Below are positions 4,476 through 24,596 of a DNA stretch of 28,217 nt, in pieces; the stretch's first letter is position 1; each line of letters starts with the position of its first letter. The position numbers were made by a program, and so were the translations under genes. The stretch is from a virus (lineage: Duplodnaviria; Heunggongvirae; Uroviricota; Caudoviricetes): IMG/VR virus record IMGVR_UViG_2802429224_000009, one strand, 5' to 3'. The notes under the pieces are model-generated. The model was not told the origin of the DNA and made no database searches. It worked only from the letters and a program-made list of their open reading frames with translations.

Positions 4476-4688
4476 ATGAACAAGAAGACATGGCTTCGCG
4501 CCTATGCATGGGCGCTGGTATGCGTCCTCGTTTCTCTCATTCTGTATGTGGGGCTACTCCCCAGAATGATTTCATCAGACAGCTCCTTCCTGGTATTGCT
4601 GGGCATTTTTGTCGCCTTGCTGTACCCGGCGGGCGTTGTCCGCTTTTTCAGTAACTACATCAAAGCAATTATGGAAACCAAACAATGA
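4476..4688 (+). CDS. Small inner-membrane protein (70 aa, two TM helices), partner of the SPFH lipoprotein
   Basis: Hydrophobic segments YAWALVCVLVSLILYVGLL and FLVLLGIFVALLYPAGVV; stop TGA overlaps the ATG of the SPFH gene (ATGA at 4685-4688). Confidence 0.5.
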   Translation: MNKKTWLRAYAWALVCVLVSLILYVGLLPRMISSDSSFLVLLGIFVALLYPAGVVRFFSNYIKAIMETKQ

Positions 4689-5509
4689 AAAAACTATTAC
4701 CACTCATCCCTCTCCTGATGACCACACTTCTGGTTGGCTGTGACCGCGTGGAGCCGGGCAATGTAGGCATCAAAGTCAACAAGCTGGGCGACGACAAAGG
4801 CGTCGGCGAAGTAGTTGGCGTTGGCCGCTACTGGACAGGCTGGAATACAGAGGTTTACATCTTCCCGACCTTCAAACAAATGAAGACTTACGATGAGCCG
4901 TTCAGCTTCCAGATGAGTGACGGCACAACCATCGGCTATCACATCGGCGTGGCTTACAAGGTTGATCCATCCAAAGTTACCACAGTGTTTCAGACCTACC
5001 GCAAAGGCGTGGATGACATTACTGACACTGACCTGCGCCAGAAGATCGCCGATGCACTCAACCGACTGGCCAGCAAAATGACCACCGATAAGTTTATCGA
5101 CGGTGGCAAGTCTGAACTGCTGGATTCAGCACTTAAAGACATTCAGTCAGAAATGACACCTATCGGCATTCAGGTAATGAGCCTCTCTTATGTCGGTAAA
5201 CCGGAATATCCGCCAACCGTTATCGACAGCATTAACGCCAAAGTCACGGCAAACCAGAAAACCCTGCAACGCGAGCAGGAAGTCAAGCAACGCGAAGCAG
5301 AAGCCAACATGCTGCGCGCAGAAGCTGCCGGACAGGCCGATGCCATTCGCACAAAAGCCCAGGCTGAAGCCGACGCCATTCGTTTACGCGGTGAAGCTCT
5401 GCGCCAGAATCCCGGCGTTATGGAGCTGGAAGCGATTAACAAATGGAACGGCACGCTACCGCAATACATGACCAGTAATACCGCTGTTCCGTTTGTTCCG
5501 GTGAAGTAA
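4685..5509 (+). CDS. SPFH/band-7 (prohibitin/stomatin-like) domain lipoprotein
   Basis: 274 aa. N-terminal lipoprotein signal peptide with lipobox LLVGC (MKKLLPLIPLLMTTLLVGC); central SPFH-like core; C-terminal Ala/Glu/Arg-rich coiled coil (REAEANMLRAEAAGQADAIRTKAQAEADAIRLRGEA) typical of the family. Confidence 0.8.
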   Translation: MKKLLPLIPLLMTTLLVGCDRVEPGNVGIKVNKLGDDKGVGEVVGVGRYWTGWNTEVYIFPTFKQMKTYDEPFSFQMSDGTTIGYHIGVAYKVDPSKVTTVFQTYRKGVDDITDTDLRQKIADALNRLASKMTTDKFIDGGKSELLDSALKDIQSEMTPIGIQVMSLSYVGKPEYPPTVIDSINAKVTANQKTLQREQEVKQREAEANMLRAEAAGQADAIRTKAQAEADAIRLRGEALRQNPGVMELEAINKWNGTLPQYMTSNTAVPFVPVK

Positions 5510-9667: not shown

Positions 9668-10627
9668 ATGAAAATTTGTATCGACGACGGCTCCACCAAC
9701 ATCAAGCTGGCATGGACTGAGAACGGCGAACGCCGCAACGCCATCAGCCCGAACAGCTTCAAGTCGGAATGGTCTGCGCCGTTCGGTGGCACGCAGCCCG
9801 CGAACTACATGCTTGATGGCGTGCGCTATGGTTTTGATCCGGTCAGCGATCGCTTTGTCCAGACGACCGACACGCAATACCAGTACAGCGATGTGAATGT
9901 CATTGCCATTCATCATGCGCTGGTCAAATCAGGCATCACGCCACAGGAGGTGGATGTGGTTGTCACCCTGCCACTGAGCGAGTATTTCGACACAAACGCA
10001 CAGCCGGACATGACCAACATCAACCGCAAAAAAGCGAACGTTATGCGCCCGGTGGAGTACCAGAACGGCGAGGCATTCACTATCCGTAACGTGCGGGTTA
10101 TGCCTGAATCCATTCCGGCTGGCTTTAAAGCACTGGCTGACATGAGTCCGTTTGAATCCCTGCTGATTGTGGATTTGGGCGGAACCACGCTGGATGTGGC
10201 AAAGGTTCAGGGGCAACTGGCAGGTATCAGCCAGGTGTTTTGCGATCCACACGTAGGCGTTTCCCTGATGGCCGATGCCGTACTGTCGGTGATGGCCACC
10301 AACGGTATGCGCACCAGTCACCACATCGCCAATACCATTATCGAACATCGCCACGATGAAGCCTGGCTGCGCCAGCACATCCACAATGACGCGCATTACG
10401 CCAGCCTGATGGCGGTTATTCGTGAAAAGGAAGAAACACTGAAACAACGCGTGATCCGCGCGCTGGCGGGTTTTTCGGGTTACGGGCGGGTGATGGTTGT
10501 CGGTGGAGGGGCGGAGATTGTGGCACCCGCTATCCGCGAAGCCTGCGGAGTTAATGCGACTTTCATCGCGGACGGGGTGCCACAGTTTGCTCTGGTTAAT
10601 GGGCTGTACGCAATGGACAAGGAGTAA
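9668..10627 (+). CDS. parM: Actin-like segregation ATPase, ParM/StbA family (type II partition)
   Basis: 319 aa, AAGGAA RBS. N-terminus MKICIDDGSTNIKLAW closely matches R1 ParM as recalled (MLVFIDDGSTNIKLQW); phosphate-2 motif IVDLGGTTLDV; C-terminal VMVVGGGAEI...LVNGLYA also ParM-like. Confidence 0.9.
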   Translation: MKICIDDGSTNIKLAWTENGERRNAISPNSFKSEWSAPFGGTQPANYMLDGVRYGFDPVSDRFVQTTDTQYQYSDVNVIAIHHALVKSGITPQEVDVVVTLPLSEYFDTNAQPDMTNINRKKANVMRPVEYQNGEAFTIRNVRVMPESIPAGFKALADMSPFESLLIVDLGGTTLDVAKVQGQLAGISQVFCDPHVGVSLMADAVLSVMATNGMRTSHHIANTIIEHRHDEAWLRQHIHNDAHYASLMAVIREKEETLKQRVIRALAGFSGYGRVMVVGGGAEIVAPAIREACGVNATFIADGVPQFALVNGLYAMDKE

Positions 10628-10631
10628 ATCA

Positions 10632-10946
10632 ATGACGACACCAACCAGACGGATAAGTTTCTATCTGAAGCCCGCCGTCGTCAAGAGCGAACGGGAGGCG
10701 TGCAGTTACCTCGACAGCCTGCCAGCCTCCGAACGCAGCCGCGCACAACGCGCGGCTTTTCTGGCCGGACTGGCTCTTATAAAACGCACCCCCGCGTTGG
10801 CGTATTCGCTGGCAGAATGGTCAGAAGACGAAATACGGATGCCATCGCTGCCAGTACAGCCTGAAAAACCGGCACAACCAGCAACAAAGAACGACAGCGC
10901 CACACAACTGATGAAGGACAATATCCGCGCACTCTTTCCCGAATAA
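10632..10946 (+). CDS. parR: ParR/StbB-like centromere-binding adaptor (ribbon-helix-helix)
   Basis: ATG at 10632, 4 nt after the parM stop. RRISFYLKPAVVKSEREACSYLDSLPASERSRAQRAAFLAGLAL parallels R1 ParR (RTIAFKLNPDVNQTDKIVCDTLDSIPQGERSRLNRAALTAGLAL) from memory. The track ORF 10497..10946 is an artefactual upstream extension overlapping parM. Confidence 0.8.
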   Translation: MTTPTRRISFYLKPAVVKSEREACSYLDSLPASERSRAQRAAFLAGLALIKRTPALAYSLAEWSEDEIRMPSLPVQPEKPAQPATKNDSATQLMKDNIRALFPE

Positions 10947-11033
10947 CCCCATCGGGGCAATATCGCCCGCTTGCAGGAGAGTCCGGACGAAGCCAGAATA
11001 ACGGCAAACAGTAACTCAGAAGAGGATAACATC

Positions 11034-11537
11034 GTGAGTCACTTTAACGATTTATGTCAGATCAACAAGGATGCAGAAGAGAAGCATACCGAAGCAGCGA
11101 AAATTCTGCGGGAGAGCGCAGCAGAGTTGATTGATTTTTATGAAGAATGGCTGGGGCTTCCATCCCTGTACTGGGAAGATAATGACGGCAACTCGCATCG
11201 CTATGTAGACACAGGCCAGCCATGCAAAACAGCGGAAGACTTCCGCCCGTTCCCACTCCACAGAATGCCATCTTCTCGGGACAATGTTTTTCGTATGGCT
11301 GTGCGAACGTGGGTTGGTTCATCTGACAACAGTTACCCGGTAAGCGTGGTTATTGCGCTTGAACTGCATTCGGTAGATACAGAAAGGGTATCCCTGAAAG
11401 TTCAGGTAGAAGACGATGGCCCTGTTCGCGTATTGCTTAATAAACCCAGCGCAGAAGCCTGGGGAGAGGTGGTCAAGAGCATGAAAAAACACATTGCCAG
11501 TCACCTGAAAAGCCGCGCTCCATCCGCGCTCCGTTAA
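11034..11537 (+). CDS. Hypothetical acidic protein (about 167 aa from GTG 11034; track ORF begins at TTG 10971)
   Basis: GTG at 11034 has AGAGGA about 7 nt upstream; ORF ends at 11537 directly before a strong hairpin. No family recognised. Confidence 0.5.
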   Translation: MSHFNDLCQINKDAEEKHTEAAKILRESAAELIDFYEEWLGLPSLYWEDNDGNSHRYVDTGQPCKTAEDFRPFPLHRMPSSRDNVFRMAVRTWVGSSDNSYPVSVVIALELHSVDTERVSLKVQVEDDGPVRVLLNKPSAEAWGEVVKSMKKHIASHLKSRAPSALR

Positions 11538-17895: not shown

Positions 17896-18390
17896 ATGTT
17901 TGACGGGAAAAGCATTCACTATCAGCAGGCCATTATTCAGAACGATGGATTCTGGCCGGATATTGATGCCGGCGATTTTGAAAAGAGCCGCAGCATCCCC
18001 GCCGTCACGTCACACGAAACGGTGCTGACGGCACTGCTTTGCGCGGTAACAGAGATTAACACTGAACTGGCTGCACGCCGTGAATACTGGCAGGAACAGG
18101 GCCACATCCGGGCCGCCGATATTCCGGGTTACACCGTGTTGCAACCAGAGCCGCGCAATACGGATGCACAACCTGAACGGATGCAGAACCACATTACAGC
18201 ACTGTACACCAAGGCTGTGTATGCCCGCGCAAAGGCCGATCTTTTGCCGGAATCTGCCAGCGTGGGGCGGCGCGAGGCGCAGCCATCATCAGAAGCCAGC
18301 GAAAGCCGCCGGACGTTGCTGGCTGAAGCGGCCATGGCGGTGCGGGCGCTGCTGGGCCGACCGCGTGCATCCATCGCGCTGATTGATTAA
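17896..18390 (+). CDS. L: Head completion/stabilisation protein (P2 gpL-like)
   Basis: Track ORF 17701..18390; ATG at 17896 (MFDGKSIHYQQ...) has GGAG 6 nt upstream. Motif GFWPDIDAG...EINTELAARRE resembles P2 gpL (FFFPDIDPK...ETNAELYEYRE) from memory. Confidence 0.7.
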   Translation: MFDGKSIHYQQAIIQNDGFWPDIDAGDFEKSRSIPAVTSHETVLTALLCAVTEINTELAARREYWQEQGHIRAADIPGYTVLQPEPRNTDAQPERMQNHITALYTKAVYARAKADLLPESASVGRREAQPSSEASESRRTLLAEAAMAVRALLGRPRASIALID

Positions 18391-19602: not shown

Positions 19603-20751
19603 ATGACATGGCCATCTGTCACGATTGAACAGTACAACACATTCAGCAGTTCACCGGACGGCGTGGAAAATACGCTGCTGTTTGTGGGCAATGCACAAAA
19701 CAACAAAGGTGAGGTTCTGCCGGTTAATGCCAACAGCGATCTGGATGAGCTACTGGGAAAGAACGCCAGCCCGCTGAAGAACTTCCTTCAGTCTGCACTG
19801 ACCAATGCCGGACAGAATGCCTTTTTCTATGTTGCCGTTCTGCCGGAAGCCGGCAAAGGCAAAGAAGCAACGCCAGCCTGCCAGGTATGGCAGAACGCCA
19901 TACTGGCGGCTCAGGAAACTGTTTCAGTTGAAGGCGTGGTGATCACCGAGCCGGTCAGCACGAAGGATGACATCAACGCCATACAGGCGTTACGTCAGAC
20001 CATCATCAATAAATATCAGCGCCGCATCTGGTTCATCCTGACCATCGCCGCCAACGACAACAGTAAAACCTGGGCGGAATACGTTGCCGAACTGACCGCA
20101 CTACAGAAAGGCATTGCAGCCCCGCAGGTCATGCTGGTTCCGGAGATTTTTGGATTTGAACCGGGCGTTCTTGCCGGTCGCCTGTGTAACAGCGCCGTCA
20201 CCATTGCTGACAGTCCGGCACGTGTGGCAACCGGGCCCCTGTCCGCACTGAAAACCACAGAACGCCCGAAAGACAGCACAGGGCAGGCAATTGATCTCGA
20301 CACTCTGCAGGCGCTGGCAACCGCCCGCTACAGCGTGCCCATGTGGTATGCCGACTATGACGGCCTTTACTGGGCTGACGGTGTAACACTTGAGGTGGAA
20401 GGCGGGGACTACAACGTCATTGAGCATGTCCGCATTGCTGATAAGGTGGCGCGCCGCGTGCGGCTGATGGCCATCCCCAAGATTGCCGACCGCTCGCTGA
20501 ACAGCACGCCGGGCAGCATTGCCGCACATGAAACGCTGTTTGCCCGCCCACTGCGTGCCATGGCGAAATCCATGCAAATTAACGGCATCACGTTTCCGGG
20601 CGAAGTGAAATCGCCCCGGAAAGGCGACGTGGTTATCACCTGGCAGGACGAAAAGACGGTCAGCATCAGCATTGTCGTCCGCCCTTACGCCTGCCCTAAA
20701 ACCATCAAAGTGGGCATTCAGCTGGATAAATCTCTGGAGGAAAACGCATGA
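19603..20751 (+). CDS. Putative contractile tail sheath protein (382 aa)
   Basis: Track ORF 19471..20751; ATG at 19603 with AGGAG RBS. Size and position (first of sheath, tube, chaperone, tape-measure order) support the call; not verified by motif. Confidence 0.5.
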   Translation: MTWPSVTIEQYNTFSSSPDGVENTLLFVGNAQNNKGEVLPVNANSDLDELLGKNASPLKNFLQSALTNAGQNAFFYVAVLPEAGKGKEATPACQVWQNAILAAQETVSVEGVVITEPVSTKDDINAIQALRQTIINKYQRRIWFILTIAANDNSKTWAEYVAELTALQKGIAAPQVMLVPEIFGFEPGVLAGRLCNSAVTIADSPARVATGPLSALKTTERPKDSTGQAIDLDTLQALATARYSVPMWYADYDGLYWADGVTLEVEGGDYNVIEHVRIADKVARRVRLMAIPKIADRSLNSTPGSIAAHETLFARPLRAMAKSMQINGITFPGEVKSPRKGDVVITWQDEKTVSISIVVRPYACPKTIKVGIQLDKSLEENA

Positions 20752-21203
20752 CGACCCGCATTAACGGCATGGCGTTTGACACTTTTATCGGTGGAACGGA
20801 TATCCATGTGAAAAGCATCTCACTGGACATCAGCGATGAAAGCGCCGTTGCCAAAACCCGTGGCATCCCTGACGGCAAACTGCGCGGCCCTGTCAGTGCC
20901 GAAGGTGAAATCGAAATGAGTACCCGCAGCTTTAACCAGCTCGGGGAAGTGGCTGCTCAGGAGGGATCGTGGCGTGACCTGCCGCCAATGGATTTTGTGT
21001 TTTACGCCAACACGGGAACCGAAGAAATCCGCGTTGAAGCCTTCGGTTGTGAGCTGATGCTTTCCGGCCTGTTAAGCATTGACACCGAGAGCGCAGATCT
21101 GACCACGCACAAAATCAAGTACGTGGTGGCAAGCCCTGACTTTGTGCGTATCAACGGCGTGCCCGTTCTCTCAGAGAACGACGTGCGCGGACTGATGGGG
21201 TGA
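20748..21203 (+). CDS. Putative tail tube protein (151 aa)
   Basis: Start overlaps sheath stop (ATGA); size and synteny typical of a myophage tube protein. Confidence 0.5.
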   Translation: MTTRINGMAFDTFIGGTDIHVKSISLDISDESAVAKTRGIPDGKLRGPVSAEGEIEMSTRSFNQLGEVAAQEGSWRDLPPMDFVFYANTGTEEIRVEAFGCELMLSGLLSIDTESADLTTHKIKYVVASPDFVRINGVPVLSENDVRGLMG

Positions 21204-21206
21204 ACC

Positions 21207-21503
21207 ATGCAGGAGCATGAGCGCACCATTATCACTCTGGGTATTCTGGGCGGAATCGCTGCCGCAAGTCGGGTGCTGGCTGGCGCAGAGCCGATTACGT
21301 TGCGGTTGTTTGTGGGCCGAACCCTGCTGGGGAGCGCGCTGGGTGTTTCTGCCGCTGCCCTGCTGGTTCGCTACCCGAACCTTGACCCACTGGCCATTGC
21401 CGGCGCAGGCACCGCAATGGGCGTTGCCGGTTACCAGATTGTTGAAATCTTCCTGCGTCATATGCGCCGGAAGCTGGGCGAGAAAGAGAACAAAGAGGAG
21501 TAA
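21207..21503 (+). CDS. Holin-like small membrane protein (98 aa)
   Basis: Two to three hydrophobic helices (IITLGILGGIAAASRVLAG; LLGSALGVSAAALLV; AIAGAGTAMGVAGYQIV) followed by a highly charged C-terminal tail (RRKLGEKENKEE), a classic holin layout. Confidence 0.45.
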   Translation: MQEHERTIITLGILGGIAAASRVLAGAEPITLRLFVGRTLLGSALGVSAAALLVRYPNLDPLAIAGAGTAMGVAGYQIVEIFLRHMRRKLGEKENKEE

Positions 21504-21508
21504 CAGCA

Positions 21509-21610
21509 ATGCTGTCCCGCAGGGAACAAAAAGCTGCCGCCATTGCCTGGAAAATTATCCGGGCACTGTGGTACTGGCTGCGCAAACCTCAGCAACCTCA
21601 TAAGGAGTAA
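21509..21610 (+). CDS. Small basic peptide (33 aa), possible lysis accessory peptide
   Basis: Not in track. ATG at 21509 with AAGAGGAG RBS; my translation MLSRREQKAAAIAWKIIRALWYWLRKPQQPHKE; ends 2 nt before the peptidase ATG. Confidence 0.3.
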   Translation: MLSRREQKAAAIAWKIIRALWYWLRKPQQPHKE

Positions 21611-21612
21611 AA

Positions 21613-21954
21613 ATGAAACTCTCCGATAAGCAACAACAATTTACCGTCATGATCGGAAAACTCATCCAGTTTGCCCATCAGCGCGGTTATGGCCTGACGT
21701 TCGGTGAGGCGTACCGCACGCCAGAACAGGCAAAACTCAACGCACAAAAGGGATCCGGCATTGCCAACAGCCTGCACTGCCAGCGGCTGGCCGTGGATTT
21801 TAATCTGTTTATTAACGGTGAATATCAGACCCGCACAGAGGCCTACCGTGAGCTGGGCGAGTACTGGGAATCCCTTGGTGGCGCATGGGGCGGTCGTTTT
21901 AAAAACCGACCGGATGGCAATCATTTCAGCCTTGAGCACGACGGCGTGCGCTGA
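21613..21954 (+). CDS. Peptidase M15-family cell-wall hydrolase (putative endolysin)
   Basis: 113 aa; zinc-ligand pattern of the M15/VanY-like fold (SLHCQRLAVDFNLF ... DGNHFSLEH); AAGGAG RBS. Confidence 0.6.
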   Translation: MKLSDKQQQFTVMIGKLIQFAHQRGYGLTFGEAYRTPEQAKLNAQKGSGIANSLHCQRLAVDFNLFINGEYQTRTEAYRELGEYWESLGGAWGGRFKNRPDGNHFSLEHDGVR

Positions 21955-22018
21955 TTTTACGCTTAATAAGCCTTCCTGCAGGCTTATTAAGCCCTCTTAT
22001 TCTTGACTTTAAAAGGAA

Positions 22019-22312
22019 ATGATGATGAACGATAAAAACACACAGACTACCGCAGAGAACACCATCACTTTACAGGTCGGCGAGCATGAACTGACGTTTA
22101 TCCCGACCGTAAAAGCCTACAACGACCTGCAGAACGACTTCATGCCGGATAACAAAATCGCGCCGCTGAAAAACTACCTGCGCCGTATCGTGATTAAAGA
22201 GCACCGCGATCTGCTGAACCAGTTGCTGGAAAAACCAGGAATGCCGGCCAGCCTGGCAACAGCCGTGAATAACGAGTTTGTGCCGGAAGTGGAAATCACC
22301 GTAAAAAAATAA
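22019..22312 (+). CDS. Tail assembly chaperone (gpE / lambda gpG analogue), with -1 frameshift extension to 22500
   Basis: 97-aa ORF directly upstream of the tape measure gene. Slippery heptamer A_AAA_AAA at 22303-22309 followed by an open -1 frame of 63 codons ending TAA at 22498-22500, overlapping the tape-measure ATG. Confidence 0.7.
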   Translation: MMMNDKNTQTTAENTITLQVGEHELTFIPTVKAYNDLQNDFMPDNKIAPLKNYLRRIVIKEHRDLLNQLLEKPGMPASLATAVNNEFVPEVEITVKK

Positions 22313-22499
22313 AAAGCCATCTGGGGGCCATTGATCGCAATGACCTGACCCGGATGCTGATTCTGCGCCGCCACTGGCTGCCCGGCGAGGATGACTCGCC
22401 GCAGTCACTGGCTGCCGCCGTCTGGCTGGATAACCACTACTGGGAAAATATGAGCATCGCCGTCAATAACGGCATTATCCGTGCTTTTAAGGGATCGTA

Positions 22500-24596
22500 A
22501 TGTCACAACAGCGCCTTGAATTACTTCTTGAACTGACAGATCGCCTGACAAGGCCGTTGCGTGCAGCCGGGCGACAGGTTCAGGGATTTGCTGCAACAAG
22601 TCGGGGAGCCTTTCGGGACATTGCTACCGGAGGCGCTGCGCTCTGGGGAGTGGGTGCAGCCATTCAGGGGGCACTGATGCCAGCCATTGAAATGGACAGG
22701 GCGCTCGGTGAGGTGAAATCACTGGGCGTCGCAGAGTCCGGATTGCGTAAACTCAGCCGCGCCGCCGTTGATTTCACTATGGAATACGGCGGGGCTGCGC
22801 AGGATTTTGTGCGTGCTTCTTACGACATCCAGTCAGCCATTGCCGGGTTAACTGACGATGAGCTGTCCCGCTTCACCACCGCATCAGCAACGGTGGCAGC
22901 AGCAACCAAATCCAGCAGCCAGACCATTACCGCCTACATGGGCACCATGTACGGCATCTTTAAAGACCAGGCTGATGCCATGGGAAAAAGTAAATGGGTG
23001 GAGCAGGTCGCCGGGCAAACCGCCACCGCCGTGCAAATGTTTAAAACAACCGGCGATAACATGTCAGCGGCGTTCACCACGCTGGGGGCTAGTGCAAAAG
23101 CGGCCGGTATTGATGCGGCTGAACAGTTCGCCGTGCTGGGACAACTACAGGCCACCATGAGTGGCAGCGAGGCCGGGACAAAATACAAGGCATTTCTTGC
23201 CGCAGTAGGTAGCGCCCAGAAAAAGCTGGGGCTTAATTTCGTGAATAAAGACGGCACCATGAAAAGTGTTGTCGAGATCATGAAACTTATCAGGGGTAAA
23301 TTTGGTGATCTGTCAAAAGTGGCTGATTCCGATTTGCTAAAAAGCGCCTTTGGCTCCGATGAAGCTGTGGCCATGATTAAATTACTCAATGCGGACATTG
23401 GCGGACTTGAAAAGAATATCGCCACGCTGGGCAATATCAAAGGTATGGATAAGGCTGTCGAAATGGCGCAGGCCATGGCTGATCCATGGGAACAGGCCGC
23501 TGCAATTATTAACGGCATTCGCATCGAAATTGGCACGCAGTTGTTGCCTGTTCTGTACCCGTTTATCCAGAAAAGCAACGAAGGCGGTAAATCCTTTGTT
23601 GCCTGGTTACGCCTGTATCCAAACATCACTCGCGCAATCGGCTTATTAAGCGCGGCACTTATTGGTGTTGCGGCGGTTGGCGCAACGGTCAATGTCGTAA
23701 TGGGGGTTGCGAAATTTATCTGGGTGGGATTACGCATGGTCTGGATGGCCGTCATCGCCCCACTGAAATTAATCGTTTTTCTGTATCGCACAATGAGAGT
23801 GGTTATGCTTGCGTTCTGTGCTGCCGCTCGCATGGTAAGAGCAATATATCTGGCAATAAACATCGCCATGGGAGTGATGAATATTCGCGCCAGAGCACAA
23901 CTGCTATTGATGGGCCTACAACGTGCCGGAATGCTCCTGCAGGCAGCAGCATTATCAGCCGTCTCTGTTGCCATGGGGATTTATTCCGCAGTCACCAGCG
24001 GAGCCGCAATTGCAACACAGTTACTTTTCAGCCCCATCACATTAATCATCCTGGCACTGGCTGCGCTGGGTGTGGGCATTTATTTCCTGATCACCCGCTG
24101 GGATGAAATCAAAGCTGCACTGATGGATACCGCTGCATTTCAGTGGGTTGCCGGCATCATTAACAGCATGGGGGCGTGGTTCGGCAATGCATGGAGTGCA
24201 ATCAGGGATGGCTGGAATGCACTGGTTAACTATTTTTCCACCCATTCACCACTGGATGCCCTGAAGGATCTCGCCGGCGGCATACTGAAGATTTTCAGTA
24301 ATCTCTGGGAACTGGTGAAACAGTCCTTCAGTGATTCATGGGGCTGGATTGTGGACAAACTCAACATGATCCCCGGCGTTAACATCGGCACATCAGAAAG
24401 CACAGGAAGTGGCGAAGGCTCCGTATTAACCGGCGGTAAAGCCATCAGCGCGGGGCCGGGTGGCATTGCGGCAGAAATGCAGAACAACAGCGAAAACCAG
24501 ACCACAATCGACAACTCCCGTCGTGTGGTCAACGTCAATGTGCAGGATCCATCCCCTGCCCGTCTTAACGAGTGGATGGAGCTGCATGCATACTGA
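22500..24596 (+). CDS. Tail tape measure protein
   Basis: 698 aa; helical Ala/Gly-rich N-terminal half, then multiple hydrophobic transmembrane-like segments (residues about 370-530), typical of tape measure proteins; directly follows the chaperone frameshift. Confidence 0.85.
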   Translation: MSQQRLELLLELTDRLTRPLRAAGRQVQGFAATSRGAFRDIATGGAALWGVGAAIQGALMPAIEMDRALGEVKSLGVAESGLRKLSRAAVDFTMEYGGAAQDFVRASYDIQSAIAGLTDDELSRFTTASATVAAATKSSSQTITAYMGTMYGIFKDQADAMGKSKWVEQVAGQTATAVQMFKTTGDNMSAAFTTLGASAKAAGIDAAEQFAVLGQLQATMSGSEAGTKYKAFLAAVGSAQKKLGLNFVNKDGTMKSVVEIMKLIRGKFGDLSKVADSDLLKSAFGSDEAVAMIKLLNADIGGLEKNIATLGNIKGMDKAVEMAQAMADPWEQAAAIINGIRIEIGTQLLPVLYPFIQKSNEGGKSFVAWLRLYPNITRAIGLLSAALIGVAAVGATVNVVMGVAKFIWVGLRMVWMAVIAPLKLIVFLYRTMRVVMLAFCAAARMVRAIYLAINIAMGVMNIRARAQLLLMGLQRAGMLLQAAALSAVSVAMGIYSAVTSGAAIATQLLFSPITLIILALAALGVGIYFLITRWDEIKAALMDTAAFQWVAGIINSMGAWFGNAWSAIRDGWNALVNYFSTHSPLDALKDLAGGILKIFSNLWELVKQSFSDSWGWIVDKLNMIPGVNIGTSESTGSGEGSVLTGGKAISAGPGGIAAEMQNNSENQTTIDNSRRVVNVNVQDPSPARLNEWMELHAY

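Follow-up and report, generated by a model that had tools for sequence, protein, structure and literature searches.

A lysis cassette without spanins and with an additional small cationic peptide gene in an HP1-like clade of Enterobacterales phages

We analyzed the host-lysis genes of a tailed virus (Caudoviricetes) represented by IMG/VR record IMGVR_UViG_2802429224_000009, a stretch of 28,217 nucleotides (nt) that we refer to as the window. A cassette of three genes lies in its tail-assembly operon and is predicted to encode a holin, a cationic peptide of 33 amino acids (aa), and an endolysin of the M15 peptidase family (Table 1). The position of this cassette, which a preliminary description of the same DNA had considered unusual, is ordinary among phages related to HP1, while the absence of spanins leads to a real and testable variant. 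That description had missed that the lack of spanins and the extra 33-aa open reading frame (ORF) are the two features that set a clade of these phages apart from their relatives. We propose that the cassette lyses the host and that the small peptide may act on the outer membrane, and we assign this explanation as a whole, with its two parts blended, a probability of roughly 0.55.

A lysis cassette in the slot used by HP1-like phages

Three ORFs had been listed for this site in the preliminary description, and all of them are present on the + strand where it had placed them. The first, described there as a holin-like 98-aa protein with a charged C-terminus, matches PF04550 (Phage_holin_3_2) with 97.7 bits (cut-off 25) over profile positions 1-85 of 86, as well as PHROG 175 'holin' (1.2e-32). 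Its hydropathy profile has three peaks, at about residues 7-25, 33-54, and 59-83, followed by the charged C-terminal tail RHMRRKLGEKENKEE. The protein is 43% identical to P2 gpY over 81 aa and 47% identical to the ESSI2_ev015 holin (tblastn). It also shares 28% identity over 86 aa (pairwise E 1e-11) with gp29, the holin of phage phiKT, which itself belongs to PF04550 (37.9 bits). These comparisons identify the 98-aa protein as a holin of the P2 gpY family, for which timed hole formation is predicted.

The M15 peptidase call likewise stands. The 113-aa protein matches PF13539 (Peptidase_M15_4) with 44.1 bits (cut-off 25) and the PHROG endolysin families 1768, 465, and 2649. Its identity to the ESSI2_ev015 and SI7 proteins that carry an endolysin annotation is 77-80%. 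Residues R35, H55, D62, H104, E108, and H109 are invariant across these three M15 proteins, and by analogy with LAS enzymes the His and Asp residues among them are putative metal ligands. A sequence search against PDB chains gave no match. The protein is a single domain with no tail-associated domain; its maximum 19-residue hydropathy is 0.71, indicating that it has no membrane segment, and it carries no signal or signal-anchor-release sequence. Because it has no hydrophobic segment, it is expected to remain in the cytoplasm until the holin releases it. In spanin-bearing relatives, the endolysin gene begins within or almost directly after the end of the holin gene and is itself followed by Rz/Rz1. 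The same slot is filled by unrelated muralytic enzymes, namely the HP1 lysozyme, a lysozyme of another type in phiO18P, and a GH108 enzyme in Edwardsiella, which argues that it is an endolysin slot and not the site of a tail component. We regard the M15 protein as the standard endolysin of the HP1-like group, with predicted muralytic action.

The place of these genes is that of their family. HP1, phiO18P, ESSI2_ev015, and SI7 are annotated with the order tube, holin, endolysin, Rz-like spanin, chaperone, tape measure. Using a genome survey that was anchored on the M15 protein and took one genome per bacterial species, we found the same arrangement with a spanin in 58 of the 78 loci returned, distributed over many genera of Enterobacterales. 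A further 37 viral contigs show it as well, giving 95 spanin-bearing loci, and in all of them the holin gene either overlaps the endolysin gene by 3-14 nt or is separated from it by no more than 5 nt. In most of these relatives, the chaperone match begins 475-587 nt after the endolysin stop (about 940 nt in two Yersinia loci). The interval holds the gene of an inner-membrane spanin (i-spanin) with an N-terminal membrane segment and, overlapped with it, the gene of a lipoprotein outer-membrane spanin (o-spanin, Rz1), whose stop overlaps the chaperone start. HP1, ESSI-2, PhiO18P, and K139 have been counted among the phages with two-component spanins (Kongari et al. 2018, PMC6139136). The window thus shares with HP1-type cassettes (hol-lys-orf25 of HP1 and the cassettes of ESSI-2/ESSI2_ev015, SI7, and phiO18P) both the slot between tube and chaperone and the order of holin, then endolysin. 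It differs from them at two points: the gap between holin and endolysin genes is 109 nt and contains the 33-aa ORF, where theirs overlap or are a few nt apart, and the endolysin is followed by a spacer of 64 nt containing only a hairpin, where theirs is followed by overlapped Rz/Rz1 genes.

In P2, the lysis cassette is located between the head-completion gene and tail-completion gene R and includes endolysin K, LysA, and the spanins LysB and LysC. The window has a gpY-family holin (PF04550) and the head and tail-completion genes L, R, and S in common with P2, whereas K, LysA, LysB, and LysC are all missing from it. Its P2 lysis position is empty, as had been noted before: the gpL gene (17896-18390) runs straight into the gpR and gpS homologues. 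The further suggestion that the lysis module had been relocated does not survive the comparison, since the slot is normal in the HP1-like branch of Peduoviridae and departs from P2 only; being the standard HP1-type arrangement, the position was discarded as a novelty.

E. coli MB07081 has a prophage that is 99.9% identical in the cassette region, and the region is present in 41-42 of 5,426 complete E. coli genomes. The whole MB07081 prophage (L001) extends from its integrase to a Com/methyltransferase module beside raiA and bamD. The preliminary description had asked whether a lysis cassette lies elsewhere, and no other holin or endolysin is annotated in this complete prophage. We consider it very probable that the cassette is the canonical host-lysis cassette of the phage, at the position normal for its family.

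Spanin absence and the small gene

No Rz homologue was found at the window cassette. A six-frame lipobox scan of the window and of the complete prophage L001 gave no credible spanin candidate, while the same scan recovers Rz1 in relatives as a positive control. The search for hidden spanins also included a hydropathy scan of all annotated L001 proteins. The earlier remark that no spanin is visible near the cassette is thereby extended to the complete prophage. Three candidates were rejected. An antisense ORF with a TTG start at 10706-10960 lies inside a + strand gene and has no ribosome-binding site, and an ORF in the +1 frame inside the M15 gene (21704-22006) has the motif LPTAC but no signal peptide. 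The third, an SPFH-domain protein of 274 aa encoded in the early region (4685-5509), was the sole lipoprotein from the scans of L001 and the window, and it has Asp after the lipid-modified Cys. This SPFH/Band 7 protein matches PF01145 at 1e-30, and its lipobox LLVGC with the following Asp suggests inner-membrane retention. Its gene overlaps that of a 70-aa protein with two hydrophobic segments at 4476-4688, and the pair looks like cargo and not like a spanin.

Two-component spanins, of which the overlapped Rz/Rz1 of lambda are an example, take the third cassette position in all close relatives. The cassette of the window, in contrast, contains neither a transmembrane i-spanin nor a lipobox-bearing o-spanin, and a helix of 33 aa cannot span the periplasm, although the small peptide may serve the same step.

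Where relatives have Rz/Rz1, the spacer of the window (21955-22018) holds a hairpin directly 3' of the M15 stop. Its minimum free energy is -20.7 kcal/mol (z = -3.5 vs shuffles). The hairpin is kept in seven clade members, with compensatory changes at four stem pairs and a conserved CTCTTCTTCTTGAC motif following it, and it is lacking in clade members with spacers of 30-50 nt (L117, L174, L175). Attenuation or termination, an effect on RNA stability, and protein binding to the palindrome are its possible roles. We found no sigma-70 promoter in the spacer and, by eye, no late-promoter dyad of the P2 type (TGT-N12-ACA).

Loci of the spanin-less clade were found through holin homologues 55-89% identical to that of the window and come from E. 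coli, E. albertii, Yersinia, and metagenome contigs. Neighbour-joining trees of the holin, of the M15 protein, and of tube plus chaperone were built from a subset of the loci, and each of the three places the window together with L084, L086, L087, L088, L089, L090, and L117 (Yersinia-type) in one clade apart from the spanin-bearing relatives. Two further loci outside the trees, L175 and Edwardsiella L174, were assigned to the clade by the similarity of their holins to that of L117 (66-67%) and by gene order. None of the clade loci, these two included, has a spanin. A small ORF is located between the holin and M15 genes in seven divergent lineages, which are the window, L084, L086, L087, L088, L117, and L175. 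Because the deepest tree branches (L117, L086, L084) carry it, the small gene was probably present in the clade ancestor. On this evidence, the absence of spanins and the small gene appear as two traits that define one monophyletic clade.

Two loci deserve a separate description. In L174 (Edwardsiella tarda CP196228, 3001-4177), the endolysin is a 183-aa protein with GH108 and PG_binding_3 domains, swapped for the M15 protein in the same slot. L033 (1040-1994) is a spanin-less relative that is unrelated to the clade, located on a 2.8-kb contig of a metagenome-assembled genome labelled Bacillales; its holin and M15 genes overlap, and a 72-nt AT-rich spacer leads to the chaperone gene. It is an independent loss of Rz/Rz1 in another branch of the family, and its Bacillales label is probably a binning error, the sequence being of the Enterobacterales phage type.

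Conservation and substitution patterns identify the small ORF as a real gene under coding constraint. The exact window peptide is recorded in a protein collection, in a cluster of 50 variants that are mostly 35 aa long, and more than 800 contigs carry the 15 cluster members listed. The 35-aa form ends in an ATGA in which its stop and the M15 start overlap, and across lineages the start and stop codons of the small ORF typically overlap those of the neighbouring genes; the 33-aa form of the window is a minority allele with TAA for CAA two codons before the usual stop. The ORF is intact in 22 of 23 close relatives (22 viral contigs and E. albertii L006), with one truncation; among viral contigs, L108 has a 27-aa truncation and L099 an in-frame deletion of one codon. 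At the same place, an ORF of 28-41 codons persists in the seven lineages at a synonymous divergence (dS) of about 0.6 to >2, that is, up to saturation.

Within E. coli-type haplotypes, the small ORF has 12 synonymous and 13 non-synonymous changes, and its ratio of non-synonymous to synonymous polymorphism (pN/pS) is 0.30, compared with 0.04-0.11 for its neighbours (binomial P = 0.0035 against neutrality). The only reliably alignable pair of lineages, the window and L088, gives a ratio of non-synonymous to synonymous divergence (dN/dS) of 0.29 vs 0.02-0.09 in the neighbours. The tiny basic 33-aa peptide of the preliminary description, with a net charge of +6, is therefore backed as a gene product by its conservation and its pN/pS. 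The small gene is carried by 41 complete E. coli genomes, and RefSeq annotates it in none of them; other gene callers have deposited it as 'hypothetical protein'. Searched against Pfam and PHROGs, the peptide matched no family (best 'WRW' ATP-synthase subunit f, 14.9 bits, below the cut-off), and a tblastn search of 50,697 phage records, with E values as high as 10 allowed, returned nothing.

The seven peptides are MLSRREQKAAAIAWKIIRALWYWLRKPQQPHKE (window), MKLTDRQQKRAAIAWKILRTLWRWLCKPQKTSKDKNETL (L088), MTPSEKQKLTAIIWRVICAAWRHLSKRRGKK (L087), MNTTDRQWRVIATLWRYGQALWRLWKKLRNSNRRE (L084), (VTGKKASPGILSG)MRQFAVKVWQLLRSLQKLRNSMNGKTRP (L086), MNKHQLHRLLRLAYWLWQCISKNRKKGGF (L117), and MTSPQQRKARITALFRFIGWIWRVLQGSAPNQQPKKDRK (L175). 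They are 28-41 aa long, with a net charge of +6 to +9, one to four Trp residues, and no signal sequence. For the window peptide, a single-sequence AlphaFold2 prediction is helical at residues 4-24, with a per-residue confidence (pLDDT) of 75-89. A helical wheel places a broad hydrophobic face (I, L, W, A) opposite a narrow Lys/Arg face. The 14-residue hydrophobic moment of the window peptide is 0.63, a value matched by 8% of shuffles, and five of the six other peptides have moments of 0.58-0.78, matched by 0.6-7% of shuffles.

A possible outer-membrane role and its rivals

In the mechanism that we propose, the gpY-family holin would build up in the inner membrane late in infection and open holes at a set time, and these holes would release the cytoplasmic, signal-less M15 peptidase, which would cut peptidoglycan cross-links. 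The small peptide, presumably made together with holin and endolysin through translational coupling, would be a third lysis factor, escaping by way of the holes of the holin and destabilising the outer membrane in the manner of phiKT gp28. In the clade ancestor, the overlapped Rz/Rz1 genes after the endolysin would have been lost and a small gene would have arisen between holin and endolysin. We infer all of these activities from sequence, and this applies most strongly to the action of the peptide on the outer membrane.

That the peptide disrupts the outer membrane like a disruptin and has taken over from Rz/Rz1 is a tentative proposal by analogy, made because its gene is limited to the spanin-less clade and lies inside the lysis cassette, and because its physicochemical character is kept beyond the point of alignability. 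Slightly more tentatively, the Trp-rich cationic peptides of 28-41 aa may form a second disruptin family, unrelated to gp28, that replaced Rz/Rz1 in one HP1-like clade of Enterobacterales.

The analogy is with phiKT gp28, so far the sole characterised disruptin; a 2026 paper leaves open whether comparable peptides serve other phages without spanins (PMC12819732). This helical 56-aa protein with a charge of +7 complements lambda phage defective in spanins, is found in association with the outer membrane, acts like LL-37, and has no homologues except a near-identical protein of the closely related phage PGT2 (bioRxiv 10.1101/515445). Antimicrobial activity of the synthetic peptide is a further experimental hallmark of a disruptin of the gp28 type. 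Gene 28 sits between endolysin gene 27 and holin gene 29. phiKT therefore resembles the clade in being spanin-less and in encoding, between endolysin and holin, a small, cationic, signal-less peptide that is predicted to be helical, and its PF04550 holin is homologous to that of the window. The window peptide also falls within the size, charge, and helix limits of a disruptin (<80 aa, at least +4, no signal, predicted amphipathic helix). The two systems differ in that the gene order of phiKT is reversed relative to the window cassette, that phiKT is a virulent podovirus whereas the window phage is a temperate myovirus, and that some clade members have no peptide gene.

Several observations speak against an outer-membrane role of the peptide. 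Some concern the peptide itself. It has no sequence similarity to gp28: gp28 matches PHROG 35982 (1.7e-42), whereas none of the seven clade peptides does, and these are Trp-rich and 28-41 aa long compared with the 56 aa of gp28. Their amphipathicity is moderate only, and the moment of the L117 peptide (0.47) is not above that of shuffles. The small gene also evolves 3-7 times faster than its neighbours. Other observations concern its distribution. Within the crown group, L089 and L090 are nested lineages without the small gene, in which holin and M15 genes overlap instead; L174 has neither a small gene nor a spanin; and L033 is also without the small ORF. From these four loci, it follows that the small gene is dispensable or that another factor breaches the outer membrane. 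The association of the small gene with spanin loss is, moreover, essentially one evolutionary event. Finally, no isolated phage with this cassette is present among the deposited GenBank phage genomes (INPHARED), so productive lysis by the clade is undocumented.

The chief alternative, although we think it rather unlikely, is that the peptide is an accessory regulator of lysis. It may act as an antiholin-like timer, perhaps through the charged cytoplasmic tail of the holin, or tune the translation of the endolysin by coupling, in a clade that lacks a dedicated outer-membrane factor and in which shear or osmotic pressure ruptures the cells after loss of the wall. The gene being dispensable in L089, L090, and L174, all of them spanin-less too, would agree with such a regulator, and in lambda, mutants in the spanin genes do still lyse when the culture is shaken and divalent cations are absent. 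The position of the gene is equally suggestive, as its start overlaps or just follows the holin stop and its 3' end bears the endolysin ribosome-binding site; a pure coupler, however, needs no charge of +6 to +9, no Trp, and no helical amphipathicity, all of which are kept across lineages that cannot be aligned. Faster evolution than the neighbouring genes is common among accessory lysis regulators, but known antiholins are, to our knowledge, membrane proteins or holin isoforms and not soluble peptides of about 30 aa. A regulator would also leave unexplained why none of the 95 spanin-bearing loci has the gene, which is confined to loci lacking spanins.

It is very unlikely that the spanins were merely deleted in a decaying prophage and that the 33-aa ORF is a chance frame without function. 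In favour of this reading, the ORF is unannotated in RefSeq and matches no family, no isolated phage has the cassette, and L001 has a pseudogene fragment that interrupts its tail-fibre genes. Against decay, the spanin-less state is old, being common to lineages with holins 55-84% identical and saturated dS, and the neighbouring genes are all under strong purifying selection (dN/dS 0.02-0.2). Against chance, a random frame of 33 codons would stay open with a probability of about 0.2 per lineage, whereas this one is open in seven divergent lineages, and it has a Shine-Dalgarno sequence and overlapping start and stop codons in addition to its pN/pS.

We give almost no credence to the earlier suggestion that the M15 protein is a virion-associated tail lysin used for infection, with the membrane protein as its partner and the true lysis cassette elsewhere: the genes do lie inside the tail operon, PHROG 1768 is a profile of 1577 positions, and some phages carry M15 domains in tail proteins, but the protein is a bare catalytic domain of 113 aa whose partner is a bona fide gpY-family holin, the same pair precedes Rz/Rz1 in relatives with the M15 protein as their endolysin, non-homologous lysozymes take the slot in HP1, phiO18P, and L174, and L001 has no second holin or endolysin annotated.

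The proposed lysis cassette with an outer-membrane-active peptide bears on a wider question. Among phages of Gram-negative hosts, about 13-15% lack a recognisable spanin (PMC6139136; bioRxiv 10.1101/515445), and how spanin-less phages breach the outer membrane was still called an open question in 2026 (PMC12819732). For E. coli, the clade allows a clean comparison: close relatives whose endolysin is the same have kept Rz/Rz1, the clade has lost them and gained a conserved gene for a cationic peptide in its cassette, and a few members have neither. The disruptin hypothesis can be addressed directly by the established lambda Rz/Rz1 complementation assay. If it is true, disruptins arise repeatedly, sequence features for finding them become available, and the clade supplies a short natural peptide active on the outer membrane, together with a natural and phylogenetically traceable swap of the outer-membrane lysis step in which some sister lineages keep spanins. 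If it is refuted, the clade is an example of phages able to persist although no lysis factor is dedicated to the outer membrane.

Cassette layout, relatives, and neighbouring genes

Table 1 Features of the lysis cassette and its boundaries in the window.
Feature	Position	Strand	Basis
Tail tube gene (HP1 Orf24 family), upstream boundary	20748-21203	+	PF10772 1.1e-49; PHROG 1182 'tail protein'
Predicted holin, P2 gpY family, 98 aa	21207-21503	+	ATG start; PF04550; PHROG 175
Small cassette gene, 33 aa	21509-21610	+	ATG start; AGGAG 8 nt upstream
Predicted endolysin, single-domain M15 (LAS-type) zinc peptidase, 113 aa	21613-21954	+	ATG start; AAGGAG upstream
Stem-loop, 13-bp stem, 6-nt loop	21961-21992	+	Terminator-like scan; folding; covariation
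Tail assembly chaperone gene, downstream boundary	22019-22312	+	PF10963 1.6e-26

Upstream of the cassette, the tube gene is preceded by a tail sheath gene (DUF2586, PHROG 907). Downstream, the chaperone gene (PF10963) is followed by a DUF6890 ORF and the tape measure gene. The DUF6890 ORF (22354-22500) encodes 48 aa and is kept across the family. It is annotated as a separate gene and may be the extension part of a frameshifted chaperone, a type of tail chaperone exemplified by E/E' of P2.

The nearest deposited phages, ESSI2_ev239, ESSI2_ev015, Cronobacter ESSI-2, Salmonella SI7 and SW3, and Yersinia vB_YenM_324, reach only about 55% identity to the window phage in the sheath, and phiO18P, HP1, HP2, and F108 are more distant deposited relatives. 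A megablast search of the region against deposited phages returned only two short partial matches to tape-measure-like sequence, covering 6% and 1% of the query.

Outside the tail operon, a ParM-type actin-like segregation protein (PF06406 and PF21523) is encoded at 9668-10627, 3' of the replication endonuclease gene. It is followed at about 10720-11035 by a 'plasmid partitioning/stability' gene, here inside an integrated P2/HP1-like prophage. Beyond the right end of the window, L001 contains a shikimate-transporter pseudogene fragment that interrupts the tail-fibre region (28304-29815) and, at 34695-36036, a Hok/Gef toxin gene together with the module of Com and a DNA methyltransferase.

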